Assembly (NCBI GenBank): GCA_964621445.1
Contig: CAZUNO010000003.1
Coordinates: forward strand, 138,306-202,305
DNA length: 64,000 nt
DNA from: Candidatus Hadarchaeota archaeon
Lineage (GTDB): Archaea > CAYQAE01 > CAYVLA01
Direction of reading: 5' to 3'
Below are positions 2,096 through 22,291 of the stretch, one piece after another (positions within the stretch are counted from its first letter, which is position 1; each line of letters starts with the position of its first letter). Position numbers and translations under genes: made by a program. Below the pieces are notes generated by a model. That model did not search any database. It was not told the origin of the DNA and saw only the letters and a program-made list of their open reading frames with translations.

Positions 2096-3087
2096 AAACT
2101 GGAGTTCGGGTTAAAACCGGTCCAAGACTCCATTTCGGCTTGTTAGACCTATCCGGTGACATGGGCAGGGTGGACGGTGGAATCGGCATGGCCCTTCAGG
2201 AACCTTCTCTGGTCATCCAGGGTAGGAGATCGAGTTCCACGAAAAGCAACAAGTTCTCTAAACTGGTTGAGTATGCGGTTGACGCTCTAAACAAGCATTA
2301 TGATAAAAATTACAGCCTCGATATCCAGGTAGATCGATCTTACCCCCAGCACGTGGGACTGGGATCCACCACCCAGATCCTCCTCTCAATCTCATACATC
2401 TACAACTTAATTTTCGGACGAACACATAACTCGCGAGAAATGGCCAATTTGCTAGGGCGAGGTGGAACATCCGGGATTGGGGTAGCATCCTTTCGATCAG
2501 GAGGCTTCATACTTGATGCAGGTCATACCTTTGGTCATAACGGTGAAAAGAATACATTCCTGCCGTCGAGGGTTTCTAATTGTCCTCCTGCACCCGTTCT
2601 CTTTAGGCATCGCATTGCATCTGACTGGGTCGTTGATCTACTCGTACCCCTTGATTCCCCAGGCCTCTCCGGTAGACCTGAAGCCGAATTCTTTCAGAAA
2701 AAATGCCCAATTCCTCGGCCAGAAACCGATAGGATATCTAGAATAGTATTATCAATTATCCTTCCAAGCGTTATTTCATCTGATATTAAACGCTTTTCTA
2801 AAGGCATTAACCTACTTACAACGTTGGGATTCAAGTATCTAGAGATACAAAACCAATCTGAATACGTAAGGAATCTAATTTCCGATATTAAACTGGTTAC
2901 TAAAAATCAAGCAGCAGTTGGTTTAAGTTCATTTGGTCCAACCGTTTTTGTTATAAGTAAAAATAATTTAAGAATGAAATTCATTGATAAATTAAAGGAT
3001 CACATATCGTATATACAATCACAACATGGAGTTACTTACTACGTAACAAGGTGTAGAAATATTGGGGCTACTGTAAATGTATGGTAG
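2092..3087 (+). CDS. mptG: Beta-ribofuranosylaminobenzene 5'-phosphate synthase
   Basis: PRLHFGLLDL, HVGLGSTTQ, GRGGTSGIG, GGFILDAGH and GLSSFGPT (GHMP fold). Confidence 0.92.
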   Translation: MKTGVRVKTGPRLHFGLLDLSGDMGRVDGGIGMALQEPSLVIQGRRSSSTKSNKFSKLVEYAVDALNKHYDKNYSLDIQVDRSYPQHVGLGSTTQILLSISYIYNLIFGRTHNSREMANLLGRGGTSGIGVASFRSGGFILDAGHTFGHNGEKNTFLPSRVSNCPPAPVLFRHRIASDWVVDLLVPLDSPGLSGRPEAEFFQKKCPIPRPETDRISRIVLSIILPSVISSDIKRFSKGINLLTTLGFKYLEIQNQSEYVRNLISDIKLVTKNQAAVGLSSFGPTVFVISKNNLRMKFIDKLKDHISYIQSQHGVTYYVTRCRNIGATVNVW

Positions 3088-3275
3088 TTATCTTCATTGT
3101 TTGATTGTTTGACAAAGGAAACAGAACAACCTGAAAGAGGGGTACTATTGAGTTTTGTTTGATCGTTTGAATGATTATAGTTGTAGCTCCGATGGATATC
3201 TTGGAAAAGAGCATTTTCCCACCTGGTTTAGTTTTTTGTTTGTGTATGTTTGTTCAAATGTTCAAATGGATTGGG

Positions 3276-4376
3276 TTATCCCTTTTTGAAGGCTCTGGTA
3301 ATATCTTTGGAGAGAGTGTACTTGTTTTTTCTCCCGACTTTTTCCACTTGAACTGCTCCCATGTTACGTAACCTGTTTAGTTGGGTGTTTATGCTACCGT
3401 AGTTGTCAACGTCGAGTTCATCTAGCACATCCTTTATGAAGGCACCGTCGGGATAGTCAACAAGGGCCTGGATTATCTCACTTTGTTGTGGTGAGTATCT
3501 TTCTAGGATCTGTTCTCTCATTGGGCCCGTGTCCTTCTTCTTTCCTAGGTAATCAGCGACCAGATCGGCATCTATAACATCTTTCCCTGACCTAATAGTC
3601 TGGAAGACTAATTGAGCTGCTATGGTTAGAGTATCCCTGGGTACCCCGTTTGAGTGTGCATGGATCTGTTCTATCGCCTCGTCTGTGAAGGGAAGGCCAT
3701 CCTCTACTTCCTTCTCACCCCTGGCCCATGCTATTCTCCTGTAGATAAGTTCCTTTGTTTCTTCTAGGTCGAATGCCTCGAGGTAGATACGCATCTTTAT
3801 TCGATCCTCGAGCGGAGGAACTTTCTTCCTGATGGTGTCTAGAGCATCTTCAGTTCCCGCGAACACTATGGACCCGCCGGCATCGTGTAGGGTTCTCACC
3901 CATCGGGCAGCTGGTTCGGATATTTCCTGGAATTCGTCGATTAAGATAACGATGTTTTCTTGTTGTAGGTGTTGTGTTATGTTTGTTGCAATTCTGTCTA
4001 GCTCTAGGGCCCTGTTTCTGGAAAAGATGGAGGATAGTCTTTCCAGGATGGAGGGTGAGTGAACGTTTTGATGTATGTGCCGGAGCATTTCGTCGTGGGT
4101 AAGGGGTTTTTCTATTAGGATTACCTTTCCGCCATTTTCCTTGCGAAGCATGTAGTGAAGCTTCTTTAGAAATGCGCTTTTACCATATCCTATGGGGGAA
4201 AGAATGGATACCATGCCCTGGTTATGTTGAAGCATGAAGGTTGCTTGGTTAAGTTCCTCTTCGTATCTGGGAACATAAACGAATTCATTGGGTAAAGGAG
4301 TATTCAGAATAAAGGGTTCTCTTCCGTGAGTCCAGCCTTGTTTGTTATAGAACTCCTCTGTTATGTTGGTGTTCAA
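3276..4376 (-). CDS. ExeA/GspA-like AAA+ ATPase with C-terminal winged helix
   Basis: ExeA-like N-terminus (EFY..GW..EPF), Walker A SPIGYGKS, Walker B ILIDEFQ, HSNGVPR sensor, wHTH tail (YSPQQSEIIQAL..SINTQLNRL..KVGRKNKY). Confidence 0.8.
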   Translation of the reverse strand: MNTNITEEFYNKQGWTHGREPFILNTPLPNEFVYVPRYEEELNQATFMLQHNQGMVSILSPIGYGKSAFLKKLHYMLRKENGGKVILIEKPLTHDEMLRHIHQNVHSPSILERLSSIFSRNRALELDRIATNITQHLQQENIVILIDEFQEISEPAARWVRTLHDAGGSIVFAGTEDALDTIRKKVPPLEDRIKMRIYLEAFDLEETKELIYRRIAWARGEKEVEDGLPFTDEAIEQIHAHSNGVPRDTLTIAAQLVFQTIRSGKDVIDADLVADYLGKKKDTGPMREQILERYSPQQSEIIQALVDYPDGAFIKDVLDELDVDNYGSINTQLNRLRNMGAVQVEKVGRKNKYTLSKDITRAFKKG

Positions 4377-4493
4377 TTTCTACCACTGAGGTGCGTGCCT
4401 TAAGGATCGTCTTGTGCGGGTAAACCTAAACATCACTCTAACGTTTGCTGAACATAGATAACGTACGGCTTCCAATAATTGATAGGCAAATCT

Positions 4494-4512
4494 CGTTCTA
4501 ATAAAGCTTTTT
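4494..4512 (-). promoter_or_regulatory. Putative BRE/TATA promoter of the AAA+ gene
   Basis: Minus strand AAAAAGCTTTATTAG about 120 nt upstream of the TTG start. Confidence 0.45.
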
Positions 4513-4921
4513 GTTTTATTTGTTGGCCCATGTTTTAGTTGTTGTTGCGCTCTGATCAGAAGTTGTATGAATAGTTGGGTTTGTTGTTATTGTTGGGGTG
4601 CTTTGGTAGGCAATTTTGATAGGCCTGGATATATCCAAAAGCAGATGATAATGATTTCGTTTGGTTTGTTGGTCTATTGTGTTCCTTCCGTTATGCTTGA
4701 ATGTTTGGTGGGGTTTAACTCAGAGACCGTTGTTGGTCTTGTTGGAGTTAGTTATTGCTTACGTTAGGAGTTTGTATATGTTTGTTATTGATACGTTTAC
4801 CTGTTAGCTGAACCGTTTATTGATGCGGTATAGTTGTTAGGCAGGTTTGAATTTGTTTGTTTTGGTGTTATTGGCGGTGGATAATGGCTGTTTAATTTGT
4901 TGATTTGTTATTAAGCGTATG

Positions 4922-5851
4922 TTATGCTTTAGCTCGACCTATTAAATGGCGGGAAATTGCGCCAGTTACGTCAACTCCGGATGCCCTAGCGGTTGCTTCA
5001 AATGATGGAGAAGGGTTAACTTCAAGTAGCTTATGCCCTTCGGAAGTATCAAGAATGTCTACGCCGGCAATATCTAGATTAAGTACTTCTGAAGCCTTAA
5101 TAGCGTCTTCAGCCATCTCAGCGGGTATATATTGTTTATCCAGCGCCTCTGCGGTGGCACCAAGGGATATATTATGCTTGTATATGGAGCCCTGTCGCTT
5201 TATTGCAGCGATGATTTCATTACCAACAAGCAGTATTCTAATATCATATGAGGAAGGAATGTAGGGCTGGATCATGGCGGGTTGTTTGTTCATATGAAAG
5301 AGGGAAAGGGTGTCTCCTAAACAAACATCATCCTTAGCTAACATAACACCAATCCCACCAGCGCTTTGAAGGGCCTTGATTACACAGGGGGAATGGATAG
5401 TTGAGTTTGTTATATGTATGTTACGTATGGGGTTTGGTGATACGAAAAAGGGAACTATTGGTAAATCATTTTTAGATAGAATGGAGAGACAAAGATGCTT
5501 CCTGGCGCTTAGATATATGGAACGCGGATGGTTAATAACGGGGACTTGTTGAGAGGCAATCCACATGGTCTCAAAAAAGAATTGGAAACATCTAGGACCG
5601 TATTCCTCAAGCCATGAAGATATGGGCCTTTGGAAAATTAGATCAAAGGAGGAAAATGACATGTTTTCAACTTGGCCGTAAGCTAGGTCATTTAGGTCTG
5701 GAGAAGGGCCTGAACCGGTTTGAGGATGATTGATTAGGGAGAGCCAGGTGTCATTTGGACTGAAAACATCAAATTCGATGCCCAGGGAATTGAATTTTGG
5801 GGCAAAAAGGGATACTTCCTTTTTGTTTTTTGGAAAGTAGGCTATCCTCAT
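4922..5851 (-). CDS. RimK-family ATP-grasp alpha-L-glutamate ligase (Orf5/MptN/CofF-like)
   Basis: GGIGV, IQPYI..DIRILLVG, NISLGA, AGVDIL, LLEVNPSP; cofactor-cluster context. Confidence 0.85.
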   Translation of the reverse strand: MRIAYFPKNKKEVSLFAPKFNSLGIEFDVFSPNDTWLSLINHPQTGSGPSPDLNDLAYGQVENMSFSSFDLIFQRPISSWLEEYGPRCFQFFFETMWIASQQVPVINHPRSIYLSARKHLCLSILSKNDLPIVPFFVSPNPIRNIHITNSTIHSPCVIKALQSAGGIGVMLAKDDVCLGDTLSLFHMNKQPAMIQPYIPSSYDIRILLVGNEIIAAIKRQGSIYKHNISLGATAEALDKQYIPAEMAEDAIKASEVLNLDIAGVDILDTSEGHKLLEVNPSPSFEATARASGVDVTGAISRHLIGRAKA

Positions 5852-6443
5852 TGGAATTCCCTTTGATTTTATGTTATGACTTGTAGCATAACAAGAAGGG
5901 GGGGAAAAGTTATATGTGTTGTTATGATTAGAATAATGGAGTAAGAAAGGGGTTGGCTGATAACGGCAAGGTTAGAGATTTGGGTTAATAACAATAGGGG
6001 GTAAATGGGGAAATTACAAATAAATATTAATAAGATTGATTCCAAAAGTTATTAATCATTTTATTCAGCATTGGAATTAGAAGCCAGAAATGCGTTCATG
6101 AAGATATGAGATGACATTAATCCTGTATCTGGGACGTTGGAGATTATCATTTGCTAAATAAAGAAATCTAAGGGCCTGGCCTGCCGGTTACGGGCATTAA
6201 TTGTAAATCATAATAAGTCTCAAAAAGGGGGGTGGAAACGGAAAAAAAGAAAGAGGCATCTCGAAAAGGGGCAAAAGGGGGGTGCTAGTGTAACTATATA
6301 TGAATTAGGGCTGCAATAAGGTTTAATTAAAAAAATGGACAGCTATGGGGGCATAAGAGGAGTAATGGGAAGCAAAAAGGGGTTTGATGGGTAATAAGAT
6401 GGGTGTTAGGAGGGGGTCAAGGATGCAGGATTATTTCTAATAC

Positions 6444-7151
6444 TCAAATTAGGGTTTCTTTGAAACGATCAACCCTATGTGCCGTTATTTTACCGTTACG
6501 CCGGTCGTTAGATTGACAGGCAGCACCTCTGATACCTATAACATCTGGTGATAATGTTTTGAGTTGTTTAGAGTGATTCAGATTTAGGGAGCCGGCCAGG
6601 GCGGAGATCATATCCATTTCCTGGAGGTGGGAGATAAATGAACAGAGTTCATCATAAGCCATGAAGTCAAACAAACATCTACCATCTTTGTTTATTGTGT
6701 CGATAAGGACCCCATCAGCTCCAGATTGGGATGCCGCCTGGAGTAGGACCAGGGGGGAAATGGACCCAACAAGTTCCCAGTCGGCGTAGCCACAGGCTAT
6801 TACCTTAATCGAGGGATCGATTGATTTAACGATATCAACGGAGGGGGTGAGTAGGGCTTGGGCCTCGGATTGGGTTTTTGTACCAAAGAGACCAAGCTTA
6901 ACGTAATCCGGTGAAAGATATGCCGCCCCGGCGGCTGCCAAGCTGACGGTTCCGGGAAGATTTGGGAGATCACCTATAGCACAACTGGTTTCACTTGTTC
7001 CGTTTACGGCATCGATAATCCTAGAGGCCTTCTGGGGAGTTGGGGCTCCAAGAGAGCCCTCCGCGGGATTCTTTATGTCAACAATGTCGGCGCCACCCGA
7101 GATGGCTTCTGGCACCTCTTCCTCGTCTACAACGCTGACTAGTAACCTCAT
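6444..7151 (-). CDS. mfnB: (5-formylfuran-3-yl)methyl phosphate synthase
   Basis: MRLLVSV..EA..GGADIVDIKNPAEGSLGA, DYVKLGL, LIDT..KDG, ALAGSL, GIRGAAC. Confidence 0.93.
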   Translation of the reverse strand: MRLLVSVVDEEEVPEAISGGADIVDIKNPAEGSLGAPTPQKASRIIDAVNGTSETSCAIGDLPNLPGTVSLAAAGAAYLSPDYVKLGLFGTKTQSEAQALLTPSVDIVKSIDPSIKVIACGYADWELVGSISPLVLLQAASQSGADGVLIDTINKDGRCLFDFMAYDELCSFISHLQEMDMISALAGSLNLNHSKQLKTLSPDVIGIRGAACQSNDRRNGKITAHRVDRFKETLI

Positions 7152-7804
7152 GATGTGATGGTAGAGGATTCGCTATAAATATGAGTTCCATACGTTCGGC
7201 CGTTAACCAAAAGCTGATGAATTCGTTTTGGGTGGTGACCATTTACAATCCATGCCTCAAGTCCATGTTTCCTAAGAATAATCGGGAGATATTCGTCTAC
7301 CAGGGATTGACGGTGACCGGAGAGGTCCTTTGCTGTGAGGGATTTGATGATCTCTTTGGATTTTTGATTCGTCAGCCCATCAACAGATTTTAATAGAAGC
7401 AATTTGGAGTTTAGGGTATTGGCTAAATAAGCGGAGATTGTATCGGAGGTCACTTCCCAGCTTTGGGGAAGATCTGATTCCTTGATAGGCGAGTAGGGAA
7501 GAAAAATGGGGATCGGTTTGCCGGGTTCCGGCTTTGGCTGCGTCGATAGGCTAAAGTAATTCGGCCAGCTAGATTCAATACAATAAGCGTTGAGGTGCAT
7601 GGCAAGGATTGCCAGCCAGTGAGAACCTCTATTCCCAATACTGTAGTTATGCCCCAGTTTTCTGATTAGATCTGCATAGGAGCCCCCACCCGCTACAGCC
7701 GCAATATCTTTTATCTTATGGACATTCCAAAGCTCGCCGACTATTTCTTCCAGTATCTCACTTGCGTCATTTATGAGACTTCCACCGATCTTCACGACCC
7801 ACAT
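7148..7804 (-). CDS. mfnE: Amino-acid-kinase family protein, [5-(aminomethyl)furan-3-yl]methyl phosphate kinase-like
   Basis: VVKIGGSL, GGGSYAD, SHWLAILAM, LPQSWEVTSDTI, KSVDG; ATG overlaps the upstream stop. Confidence 0.82.
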   Translation of the reverse strand: MWVVKIGGSLINDASEILEEIVGELWNVHKIKDIAAVAGGGSYADLIRKLGHNYSIGNRGSHWLAILAMHLNAYCIESSWPNYFSLSTQPKPEPGKPIPIFLPYSPIKESDLPQSWEVTSDTISAYLANTLNSKLLLLKSVDGLTNQKSKEIIKSLTAKDLSGHRQSLVDEYLPIILRKHGLEAWIVNGHHPKRIHQLLVNGRTYGTHIYSESSTITS

Positions 7805-22191: not shown

Positions 22192-22291
22192 GGGCCCGTG
22201 GTCTAGCTGGTTATGACATCGCCTTGACGTACTCCTTTTCAGGCGTTCAAAAAGGCGAAGTTCTTGGGTTCAAATCCCAACGGGCCCACCA
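22192..22291 (+). tRNA. tRNA-Val(GAC) with canonical 37/38 intron (22230-22252), CCA encoded
   Basis: GGGCCCG/CGGGCCC acceptor, TCGCC/GGCGA anticodon stem, BHB helix TTGA/TCAA, TTCAAAT loop, upstream TTTAAA. Confidence 0.93.

Follow-up and report, generated by a model that had tools for sequence, protein, structure and literature searches.

An MJ0774-type AAA+/winged-helix gene and an oriented AAC/GTT field at a candidate replication origin of a Hadarchaeota archaeon

What can be learned about chromosome replication from a single stretch of archaeal DNA in which the strand composition turns over beside an initiator-like gene? We analysed 64,000 nucleotides (the window; C3:138306-202305) of a Candidatus Hadarchaeota genome, a 3.21-Mb draft of 89 contigs with 51.7% G+C, and within it the locus at 3088-4921. 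This locus comprises the gene of an AAA+ ATPase with a C-terminal winged helix-turn-helix (wHTH) domain, a member of the MJ0774 family, and non-coding DNA on both sides of it, including a long field of AAC/GTT sites that point in one direction. The most economical reading makes it an origin region, or at the least a switch of replication polarity, that houses an MJ0774-family protein. The more specific proposal, an origin with a protein of the Mc-pRIP type and a phased binding array, is drawn from the sequence and has, in our judgement, about an even chance of being right. The gene order, the field, a promoter-like motif and the flip of the skew all recur in orthologous loci, so that the arrangement is found in three genera. 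An earlier note on the same DNA had suspected an origin-type context, a suspicion that is partly borne out by the skew flip, by the conservation of this flip and of synteny, by the homology to MJ0774 and by predicted folds of the Orc1/Cdc6, TnsC and MuB type.

Strand asymmetry and its switch

In this genome, whole contigs are consistently G-rich or C-rich on a given strand, independently of the orientation of their genes. The contig polarity amounts to about ±0.05 in genes of either strand, in addition to an effect of the coding strand of about ±0.087. Third codon positions (±0.07) and intergenic DNA show it as well. In 21 other contigs, GTT on the G-rich strand outnumbers AAC by 27202 to 20952 and GTTG outnumbers CAAC by 6981 to 4809; both pairs are among the most polarised words genome-wide. 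Along contig C3 (202 kb), the coding-corrected skew changes sharply at one point only, from -0.037 on the left to +0.098 on the right, with a ratio of the sums of squared errors of 0.55 that was reached by 0 of 200 permutations; it is the strongest change-point of the 32 contigs tested. The break falls between C3:141392 and C3:141581, that is, within window 3088-3275, the convergent spacer at the 3' end of the ATPase gene. The cumulative T-A curve has its minimum at C3:141363, and the cumulative GTT-AAC curve forms a sharp V with a minimum at C3:141196, which does not move when the field is masked. The three measures thus agree within about 400 bp. They coincide with a trough in G+C content (0.31 at window 2779-3178 versus 0.517 for the genome). 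The earlier note had remarked on this fall in GC, had described the + strand as C/A-rich to the left of about 3.1 kb and G/T-rich to the right, and had proposed to look for an inflection of the cumulative skew; the inflection lies at the locus, and the change in composition proved to be an asymmetry switch on the scale of the contig, not merely a matter of local gene direction.

Two trivial explanations for the switch were rejected. An artefact of gene orientation does not fit, as third codon positions and intergenic DNA also show the polarity, which opposes the coding-strand effect to the right of the switch. A misassembly does not fit either, given the conserved synteny and the independent contigs of runs X1 and X4 that span the junction. 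The same stretch is also present on contigs of microbial-mat and hypersaline-lake metagenomes.

The sign of the switch, from C-rich to G-rich and from AAC-rich to GTT-rich, is that of bacterial origins. In the Thermococcales, according to passages of PMC2958812, the cumulative curve of GTTG skew drops to a sharp minimum at oriC and peaks near dif. The genes for 16S rRNA, L2 and RpoB are all encoded on the strand with G-rich polarity in their respective contigs (3/3), which lends weak support to the origin sign. We infer an origin, not a terminus, at the switch. The orthologous loci of a related genome, G002, and of a metagenome contig, L018, show the sign change too. Elsewhere in the draft, a second, weaker origin-type switch is found at about 21.5 kb of contig C22 (-0.074 to +0.038, P 0.005), between divergent genes separated by a 118-bp spacer and with no AAA+ gene in the vicinity; it may represent either another origin or the boundary of a rearrangement. 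Switches of the terminus type are located on C4 (~101.7 kb) and C8 (~82.8 kb).

The gene order of the locus recurs in G002 and in L018, which is 99.6 kb long. In G002 the ATPase is 76% identical to ours, versus 31-45% for six neighbours, and in L018 it is 83% identical, versus 45-63% for four neighbours. Between strains, the ATPase gene differs by about 2-2.5% and the flanking DNA by about 4.5-6%. The ATPase gene is the best-conserved gene of its neighbourhood.

A Cdc6-like protein of the MJ0774 family

From the family alignment, a Walker A motif GYGKS (residues 63-67), a Walker B DE pair (147-148), a conserved R192 and the pair P246-R247 can be read. Pfam recognises the protein as AAA_22 (1.4e-10) followed by a wHTH of the Penicillinase_R type (2.5e-5). 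The NCBIfam model TIGR03015, for PEP-CTERM/ExeA-like ATPases, matches residues 20-277 with an E-value of 2.8e-12 at a score far under its cut-off, and the Orc1/Cdc6 model TIGR02928 gives no match at E-values up to 1. Close relatives are rare: 11 proteins with 65-83% identity in a collection of 5.8 billion, two of them called 'ExeA' by the Joint Genome Institute; among 1.84 billion representatives the protein forms just one cluster at the 50% level. Relatives further out share about 30% identity, are 350-370 residues long and of the same architecture, and one of them, from the Methanocaldococcus-type genome G027, belongs to the 90% cluster that contains MJ0774 of Methanocaldococcus jannaschii. 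Comparison of the family alignment (A2) with MJ0774 in hhalign yields an end-to-end match over 343 columns with a probability of 99.87% and an E-value of 9.3e-32. BLASTP against MJ0774 gives 26% identity at an E-value of 1e-24, and phmmer against a representative of the MJ0774 cluster (P0031) gives 2.0e-17. The genome's own canonical Orc1, by comparison, reaches a probability of only 23.6% in hhalign, though the two are collinear over 296 columns.

A structure model built from 41 family members reached a predicted local distance difference test score (pLDDT) of 85.8 and replaced one from 12 orthologues with a pLDDT of 68. It places the winged helix at residues 296-363 and predicts the AAA+ base, lid and C-terminal winged-helix domain of Orc1/Cdc6 proteins. 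Among 48,161 representative chains, the top fold match of the predicted model is ORC2 of Aeropyrum pernix (1w5s; Z 19.2 over 319 residues), followed by Drosophila Cdc6 (Z 18.6) and Orc1-1 of Sulfolobus solfataricus (2qby_A; Z 18.4 over 323 residues), and further by TnsC of ShCAST (Z 17.7), Pyrobaculum Cdc6 and MuB (Z 16.9 each) and DnaA (about 15). The ATPase is therefore a distant Cdc6-like protein, not a canonical Orc1. The earlier note had assigned it an ExeA-type N-terminus and a non-Orc1 nature. The first label is right in that the AAA_22 module is shared, and reflects no more than that module; the second holds in that the protein fails the Orc1/Cdc6 family model, and goes too far in that it is distantly Cdc6-like and belongs to a family already proposed as an initiator. 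In passages of PMC4009838 and PMC3914693, MJ0774 appears as 'Mc-pRIP', a distant Cdc6 homologue and putative replication initiator of the Methanococcales that was used to predict their oriC, a prediction that both attribute to Zhang & Zhang 2004; a passage of PMC2643942 likewise treats MJ0774 as a putative initiator of this order.

The genome has one paralogue of the ATPase gene, a distant one (E 1.5e-11), at C1:165124-166401 on the minus strand, an open reading frame (ORF) call of about 425 residues that also combines AAA+ and wHTH domains. Shikimate-pathway genes lie immediately upstream of it. The A-rich spacer of 372 nt in front of it, than which only two in the genome are poorer in G, shows no AAC/GTT excess comparable to that of the field (8 vs 3).

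How does the family relate to canonical Orc1? In the present genome, orc1/cdc6 lies on contig C13 (263.8 bits with TIGR02928), behind a 67-nt upstream spacer and with no skew switch; it is on a different contig from the ATPase gene, at least about 99 kb away. A homologue and a canonical Orc1 could both be located in 18 genomes, this one included. In 7 of the 18, from four families, the top Orc1 is found less than 20 kb away from the homologue: at about 3 kb in four genomes of one genus (G017, G040, G052, G062), at 3.8 kb in G069, at 9 kb in G020 and at 18 kb in G009. In two more, which belong to one family and have weak homologues (G033, G010), the distance is 49-55 kb. In G017, whose protein is listed under Ca. 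Odinarchaeum, the corrected skew has a change-point within 200 kb at position 627,276, reached by 0 of 200 permutations, and this falls between Orc1 (624,393-625,481) and the homologue (628,287-629,126). This result supports a location of the gene family, along with Orc1, at switches of replication polarity. The closed G017 chromosome (L009, C1:624393-630129) assembles its best Orc1, a 306-residue MJ0774-type gene and a 589-nt AT-rich spacer within 6 kb; the change-point differs from the published tentative origin, the skew minimum chosen in the genome paper being nucleotide +1. The GC change-point of G027 fell short of significance (P 0.1); only the minimum of the cumulative T-A curve comes close to the MJ0774-type gene, at a distance of about 3.4 kb. 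The upstream spacers of the MJ0774-type gene and of the homologue in G032 measure 675 and 696 nt and are rich in lineage-specific repeats. Overall, the link of the family to origins is suggestive, not universal.

The oriented field and its surroundings

A field that is GTT-rich on the + strand separates the stop codon of the ATP-grasp gene, upstream, from the promoter-like motif of the ATPase gene. The earlier note had counted 40 GTT versus 2 AAC in 4500-4910 by hand, and the exact count is the same; the bias it noticed in the spacer 3088-3275 (12 vs 3) and inside the ATPase gene (37 vs 12) is equally real. In a scan of all 89 contigs in 400-nt windows (mean GTT-AAC 0.13, standard deviation 3.97), the field is the most extreme place in the genome, with a difference of +36 in the window from C3:142801; the next value is 25. 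The remaining high places that we inspected are G/T-rich stretches resembling the antisense of genes.

The sites, which had been described as often 9-12 nt apart, are truly phased. On the sense strand of the gene, AAC has a Rayleigh power of 6.31 at a period of 10.5 nt, and for the maximum over periods 5-20 the P-value is 0.038 against uniform placement and 0.012 against permutation of the gaps. Among 578 genome windows with at least 12 GTT or AAC sites, the mean power at 10.5 nt is 0.91, no period of 9-13 nt is prominent, and a power of at least 6.0 is reached in one window, the field itself. The orthologous fields in L002 (from G002) and L018 are of the same oriented kind, and in L018 the AAC sites have a period of 10.6 nt (power 7.78, P 0.004 and 0.029). 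An alignment of the three complete orthologous fields is not possible; what they have in common is their composition (G 11-15%) and a core YAACA. Within the field, degenerate direct repeats occur (TGTTTTATTTGTTG three times), and a 17-mer at 4770-4786 matches another at 3238-3254, on the other side of the ATPase gene, at 16 of 17 positions. Spacing by one helical turn points to recognition of the duplex from one face, not to an RNA-level or purely mutational origin. As the sites are about one turn apart and not contiguous triplets, they argue for one-face binding of the duplex and not for a mode like that of the DnaA-trio.

Several other identities for the field were tried and rejected. A hidden coding region is contradicted by the lack of any minus-strand ORF of at least 50 residues in 4377-4921. 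A tandem repeat is contradicted by Tandem Repeats Finder, which gives only two 8-nt mini-repeats, both in 3096-3268. For a known RNA, Rfam at gathering score has nothing in the window except one tRNA, an E-value search of 2900-6600 returned a chance-level match only (E 0.2), and the RNA fold of the field is no better than that of shuffles (z -1.14).

Table 1. Coordinates of the features in and next to the locus (window positions).
Feature	Position	Strand	Remarks
Convergent spacer, 188 bp, GHMP-kinase-like gene to ATPase gene	3088-3275		asymmetry switch point, GC trough, GTT-type repeats
AAA+ ATPase with C-terminal winged helix, MJ0774/Mc-pRIP (Cdc6-like) family	3276-4376	-	366 aa, TTG start
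Putative 5' leader of ATPase mRNA	4377-4496	-	ordinary base composition; partly conserved (alignment A3)
Promoter-like motif AAGCTTTATTAGA	4497-4509	-	BRE/TATA-like archaeal element about 120 nt upstream of start codon; conserved core
Oriented field; sense strand of the gene rich in AAC and poor in G, + strand rich in GTT	4511-4921	-	counts, genome scan, phasing, repeats
Palindrome TGGATATATCCA in mid-field non-AAC island	4626-4637		loosely resembles one arm of a Thermococcales dif site; spacing misfit
ATP-grasp gene, RimK-like	4922-5851	-	Pfam; extreme G-poor coding strand; fast-evolving, 42-45% identity between orthologues
Second long spacer, 592 bp, pyrimidine-rich	5852-6443	-	9.5% G on sense strand, most G-poor co-directional spacer in genome

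The motif AAGCTTTATTAGA has a core that is invariant, save one or two substitutions, in 4/4 orthologous loci (the window, G002, G001 and L018), and in the three loci measured it stands 116-128 nt before the start codon. Its sequence suggests that it serves as the promoter of the ATPase gene, with a transcription factor B recognition element (BRE) and a TATA element. In G001 the orthologue's contig (L003, G001:C104:1-2769) starts about 57 nt upstream of the motif, so that the assembly breaks where the field is expected. The convergent spacer contains TTGTTTGATYGTTTGA twice, in addition to the 17-mer. A dif site was considered and rejected, as the Thermococcales-type pattern matches at most 16/20 positions anywhere in the genome.

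To the left of the locus, a pterin-binding gene and the GHMP-kinase-like gene run on the + strand and end at 3087. To the right, the ATPase gene, a 545-bp spacer, the ATP-grasp gene, the second long spacer and a gene for 4-(hydroxymethyl)-2-furancarboxaldehyde-phosphate (4-HFC-P) synthase are followed by more cofactor genes, all on the minus strand. By Pfam, the seven neighbours are of the pterin-binding, GHMP-kinase-like, ATP-grasp, 4-HFC-P synthase, amino-acid-kinase and hydantoinase types, with no secretion or transposase genes among them; the earlier note was right that secretion genes are lacking nearby, the neighbours being genes of cofactor biosynthesis. Transposon ends are absent from the ATPase locus.

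The ATP-grasp gene stands out by its composition. Its coding-corrected skew is +0.278 here, 0.406 in the orthologous locus L025 and -0.478 in L018, which is in the opposite orientation, and the raw GC skew on the coding strand of the orthologues (L025:6182-7102, L018:2455-3384) is -0.32 to -0.39. Its low identity between genera is found next to an ATPase gene that is 76-83% identical; no orthologue was found in G001 or G003 at an E-value of 1e-20. Among 552 co-directional spacers taken from a simple gene call of the genome, the two that flank it have the lowest sense-strand G content, 12.5% and 9.5%, and the second holds the repeat GGGGCAAAAAGGG three times on the + strand. The gene looks like one that evolved under strong local mutation pressure, and its G-poor, fast-evolving sequence suggests a strong local mutational asymmetry to the right of the switch. 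Further into the window, a 97-nt tRNA at 22192-22288 (+) scores 55.8 bits with Rfam and is missed by ARAGORN with bacterial settings; it presumably bears an intron, and it backs the archaeal source of the DNA.

Competing readings and comparison with known systems

How might such a locus work? Replication-associated strand asymmetry changes sign at 3088-4921, most likely at an origin. The AAC/GTT array upstream of the ATPase gene, together with the related repeats on its downstream side, is most likely a platform to which the ATPase or a different origin protein would attach, cooperatively and in a fixed orientation, on one face of the duplex. The 188-bp convergent spacer, which holds the AT-richest DNA and the switch point, would be the candidate region of unwinding. 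The data show composition, phasing, homology, predicted fold, switch position and conservation; binding of the protein to the array, the setting of an orientation and firing at this locus are inferences.

A number of observations weigh against an origin of this kind. The genes converge on the skew switch, an unusual arrangement for origins, and in a draft of 89 contigs with further switches on C22, C4 and C8 the whole replicon is not visible. A repeat search of 2500-7200 found no inverted repeats of the origin recognition box (ORB) type, and 3206-3230 only loosely resembles the Pyrococcus core. Of the motif fields that the earlier note proposed to look for beside orthologues, the one upstream of the gene is there in L002 and L018, but the GTT bias of the downstream spacer is absent from both. 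In L002 the AAC sites are not significantly phased (power 1.17 at 10.5 nt), and the AACA peak at 10.6 nt is marginal (P 0.095 and 0.062). In 9 of the 18 genomes (G032, G019, G034, G043, G059, G048, G050, G042 and this genome), homologue and Orc1 occupy separate contigs. Neither of the two strong homologues in G048, an Asgard genome, is at a significant skew switch (P 0.055, 0.155), and they share no contig with Orc1. In G017, finally, the switch has the opposite sign (+0.043 to -0.038), so that a call of origin versus terminus from the sign alone is weak.

The field also immediately precedes the promoter-like motif of the ATPase gene itself, which is where an operator array would be placed, and an autoregulatory operator is the main rival to an origin. 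The AAA+/wHTH protein would then be a transcription regulator of its own gene or of the neighbouring cofactor genes, binding cooperatively to phased sites or curved DNA, and the skew switch would be unrelated. The field ends about 10 nt from the conserved BRE/TATA-like motif; the C-terminal domain matches the repressor-type wHTH families Penicillinase_R, MarR_2 and HTH_5; proteins of the MJ0774 cluster are called 'ArsR/MarR family regulator' by sources; and the distant paralogue on C1, downstream of shikimate-pathway genes and behind its A-rich spacer, has a setting that would suit a regulator. However, some 40 same-direction sites over 400 bp far exceed usual operators, and the paralogue's spacer is without the AAC/GTT excess. 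An operator would also leave unexplained why the contig's only strong polarity switch lies at the other end of the gene in three genera, why a skew switch coincides with Orc1 in G017, and why the ATPase is conserved twice as well as the neighbouring metabolic genes. We consider this reading unlikely, though worth keeping in mind. A different possibility is that the field is mainly a by-product of mutation: the + strand, exposed as a single strand for long periods next to the switch or in an R-loop, would suffer deamination of C and A, leaving G/T-rich, C-poor DNA with no sequence-specific binding function. The depletion of C on the + strand over about 3.3-7 kb, coding DNA included, fits such a process, as do the magnitude of the corrected skew in the fast-evolving ATP-grasp gene (0.28-0.48 in all three loci), the second spacer, G-poor on the sense strand yet not AAC-rich, the fields that share only composition between genera, and a divergence of the field between strains of 4.8%, similar to that of neighbouring DNA. 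Yet a mutational bias cannot yield a 10.5-bp phasing of AAC in two independent loci or 17-mers identical at 16/17 positions on both sides of the gene, and as a reading it does not compete with that of an origin but can stand beside it. Mutational bias may thus contribute to the composition of the field but does not explain its phasing, and as the main cause we hold it to be distinctly unlikely.

The switch could also mark a replication terminus or an old rearrangement boundary, with the locus serving termination, dimer resolution or chromosome organisation, which we regard as quite improbable. The convergence of the genes on the switch would suit a terminus, as would the loose resemblance of the palindrome at 4626-4637 to an arm of the Thermococcales dif, the sign of the Orc1-linked skew in G017, opposite to the one here, and the presence of four switches, not two, in the draft. 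Against this, the sign here matches the origins of bacteria and Thermococcales, and the highly expressed loci agree in 3/3 cases; the dif-like element has the wrong spacing; the resident protein comes from an initiator-like family and not from a family of recombinases or terminators; and a boundary kept in three genera would lose its sharp switch unless replication maintains it.

If the locus is a replication origin with an MJ0774-family protein, what would follow? Archaeal origins are usually sought beside orc1/cdc6; here the canonical gene is without origin-like DNA and a Cdc6-like gene is at the switch. MJ0774-type proteins, so far a computational proposal for the Methanococcales only, would then mark origins in a number of archaeal phyla, some of them related to the ancestor of eukaryotes. 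The oriented, helically phased array of 400 bp would offer a concrete DNA substrate for studies of origin recognition and orientation, and the coding-corrected skew together with the position of an MJ0774-type gene would give a rule for finding origins in uncultured archaea. A wider view, bolder and in our estimate unlikely, would make MJ0774-type proteins a second, widespread class of archaeal origin proteins alongside Orc1, in Hadarchaeota-like, Asgard and small-genome archaea, and more than a stand-in for Orc1 in the Methanococcales. In the present lineage such a protein would then specify the origin by way of a novel element, trinucleotide sites arrayed in one strand orientation and in phase with the helix, which would give a direction to the AAA+ assembly, and through it to the loading of the helicase, in place of inverted ORB boxes.

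Which known systems does the locus resemble? With ExeA/GspA and the PEP-CTERM ATPases, the ATPase has the AAA_22 nucleotide-binding module in common, but in place of their membrane- or peptidoglycan-binding parts it ends in a wHTH, and its neighbours serve cofactor biosynthesis. TnsC and MuB polymerise on duplex DNA, a mechanism of the sort that the earlier note envisaged for the ATPase on oriented trinucleotide sites, and the ATPase shares their AAA+ fold of the initiator clade (Z 17.7 and 16.9). However, they sit in transposons and are without the C-terminal wHTH match of the ATPase, whose locus has no transposase and a housekeeping biosynthetic synteny in three genera. The likeness to Orc1/Cdc6 and its origins is closer. 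AAA+ base, lid and winged helix are common to both (Z 18-19), and like ORB-type origins the locus sits at a minimum of cumulative skews and a switch of strand composition. In the Pyrococcus abyssi oriC as described in passages of PMC1904270, the cdc6 gene of the Thermococcales lies between two clusters of repeats, as does the ATPase gene here. Unlike canonical members, the ATPase fails the TIGR02928 model. The repeat search of 2500-7200 turned up neither ORB or mini-ORB repeats nor their inverted arrangement around an AT-rich core, while the locus does have a GC trough and, at 3206-3230, the loose resemblance to the Pyrococcus core.

The closest counterpart is Mc-pRIP/MJ0774. Identity between the two proteins is only 26%; the Methanococcales are reportedly without a canonical Orc1/Cdc6, whereas this genome keeps one; and the repeats differ, short AAC/GTT sites spaced by about 10.5 bp in a G-poor setting here versus repeats of about 15-20 nt in 82% A+T in Methanocaldococcus. 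Nevertheless, the proteins are alike from end to end, with an N-terminal segment, an AAA+ module, a GxPR motif and a C-terminal wHTH. Both genes adjoin a long non-coding region with same-direction repeats, and both lie at or near a switch of strand composition; in our case, by computation, the gene adjoins two repeat-bearing spacers (545 and 188 bp) and the skew change-point is at its 3' end. The present case extends the MJ0774 family to a lineage that also keeps a canonical Orc1, and adds to it a different kind of repeat element.

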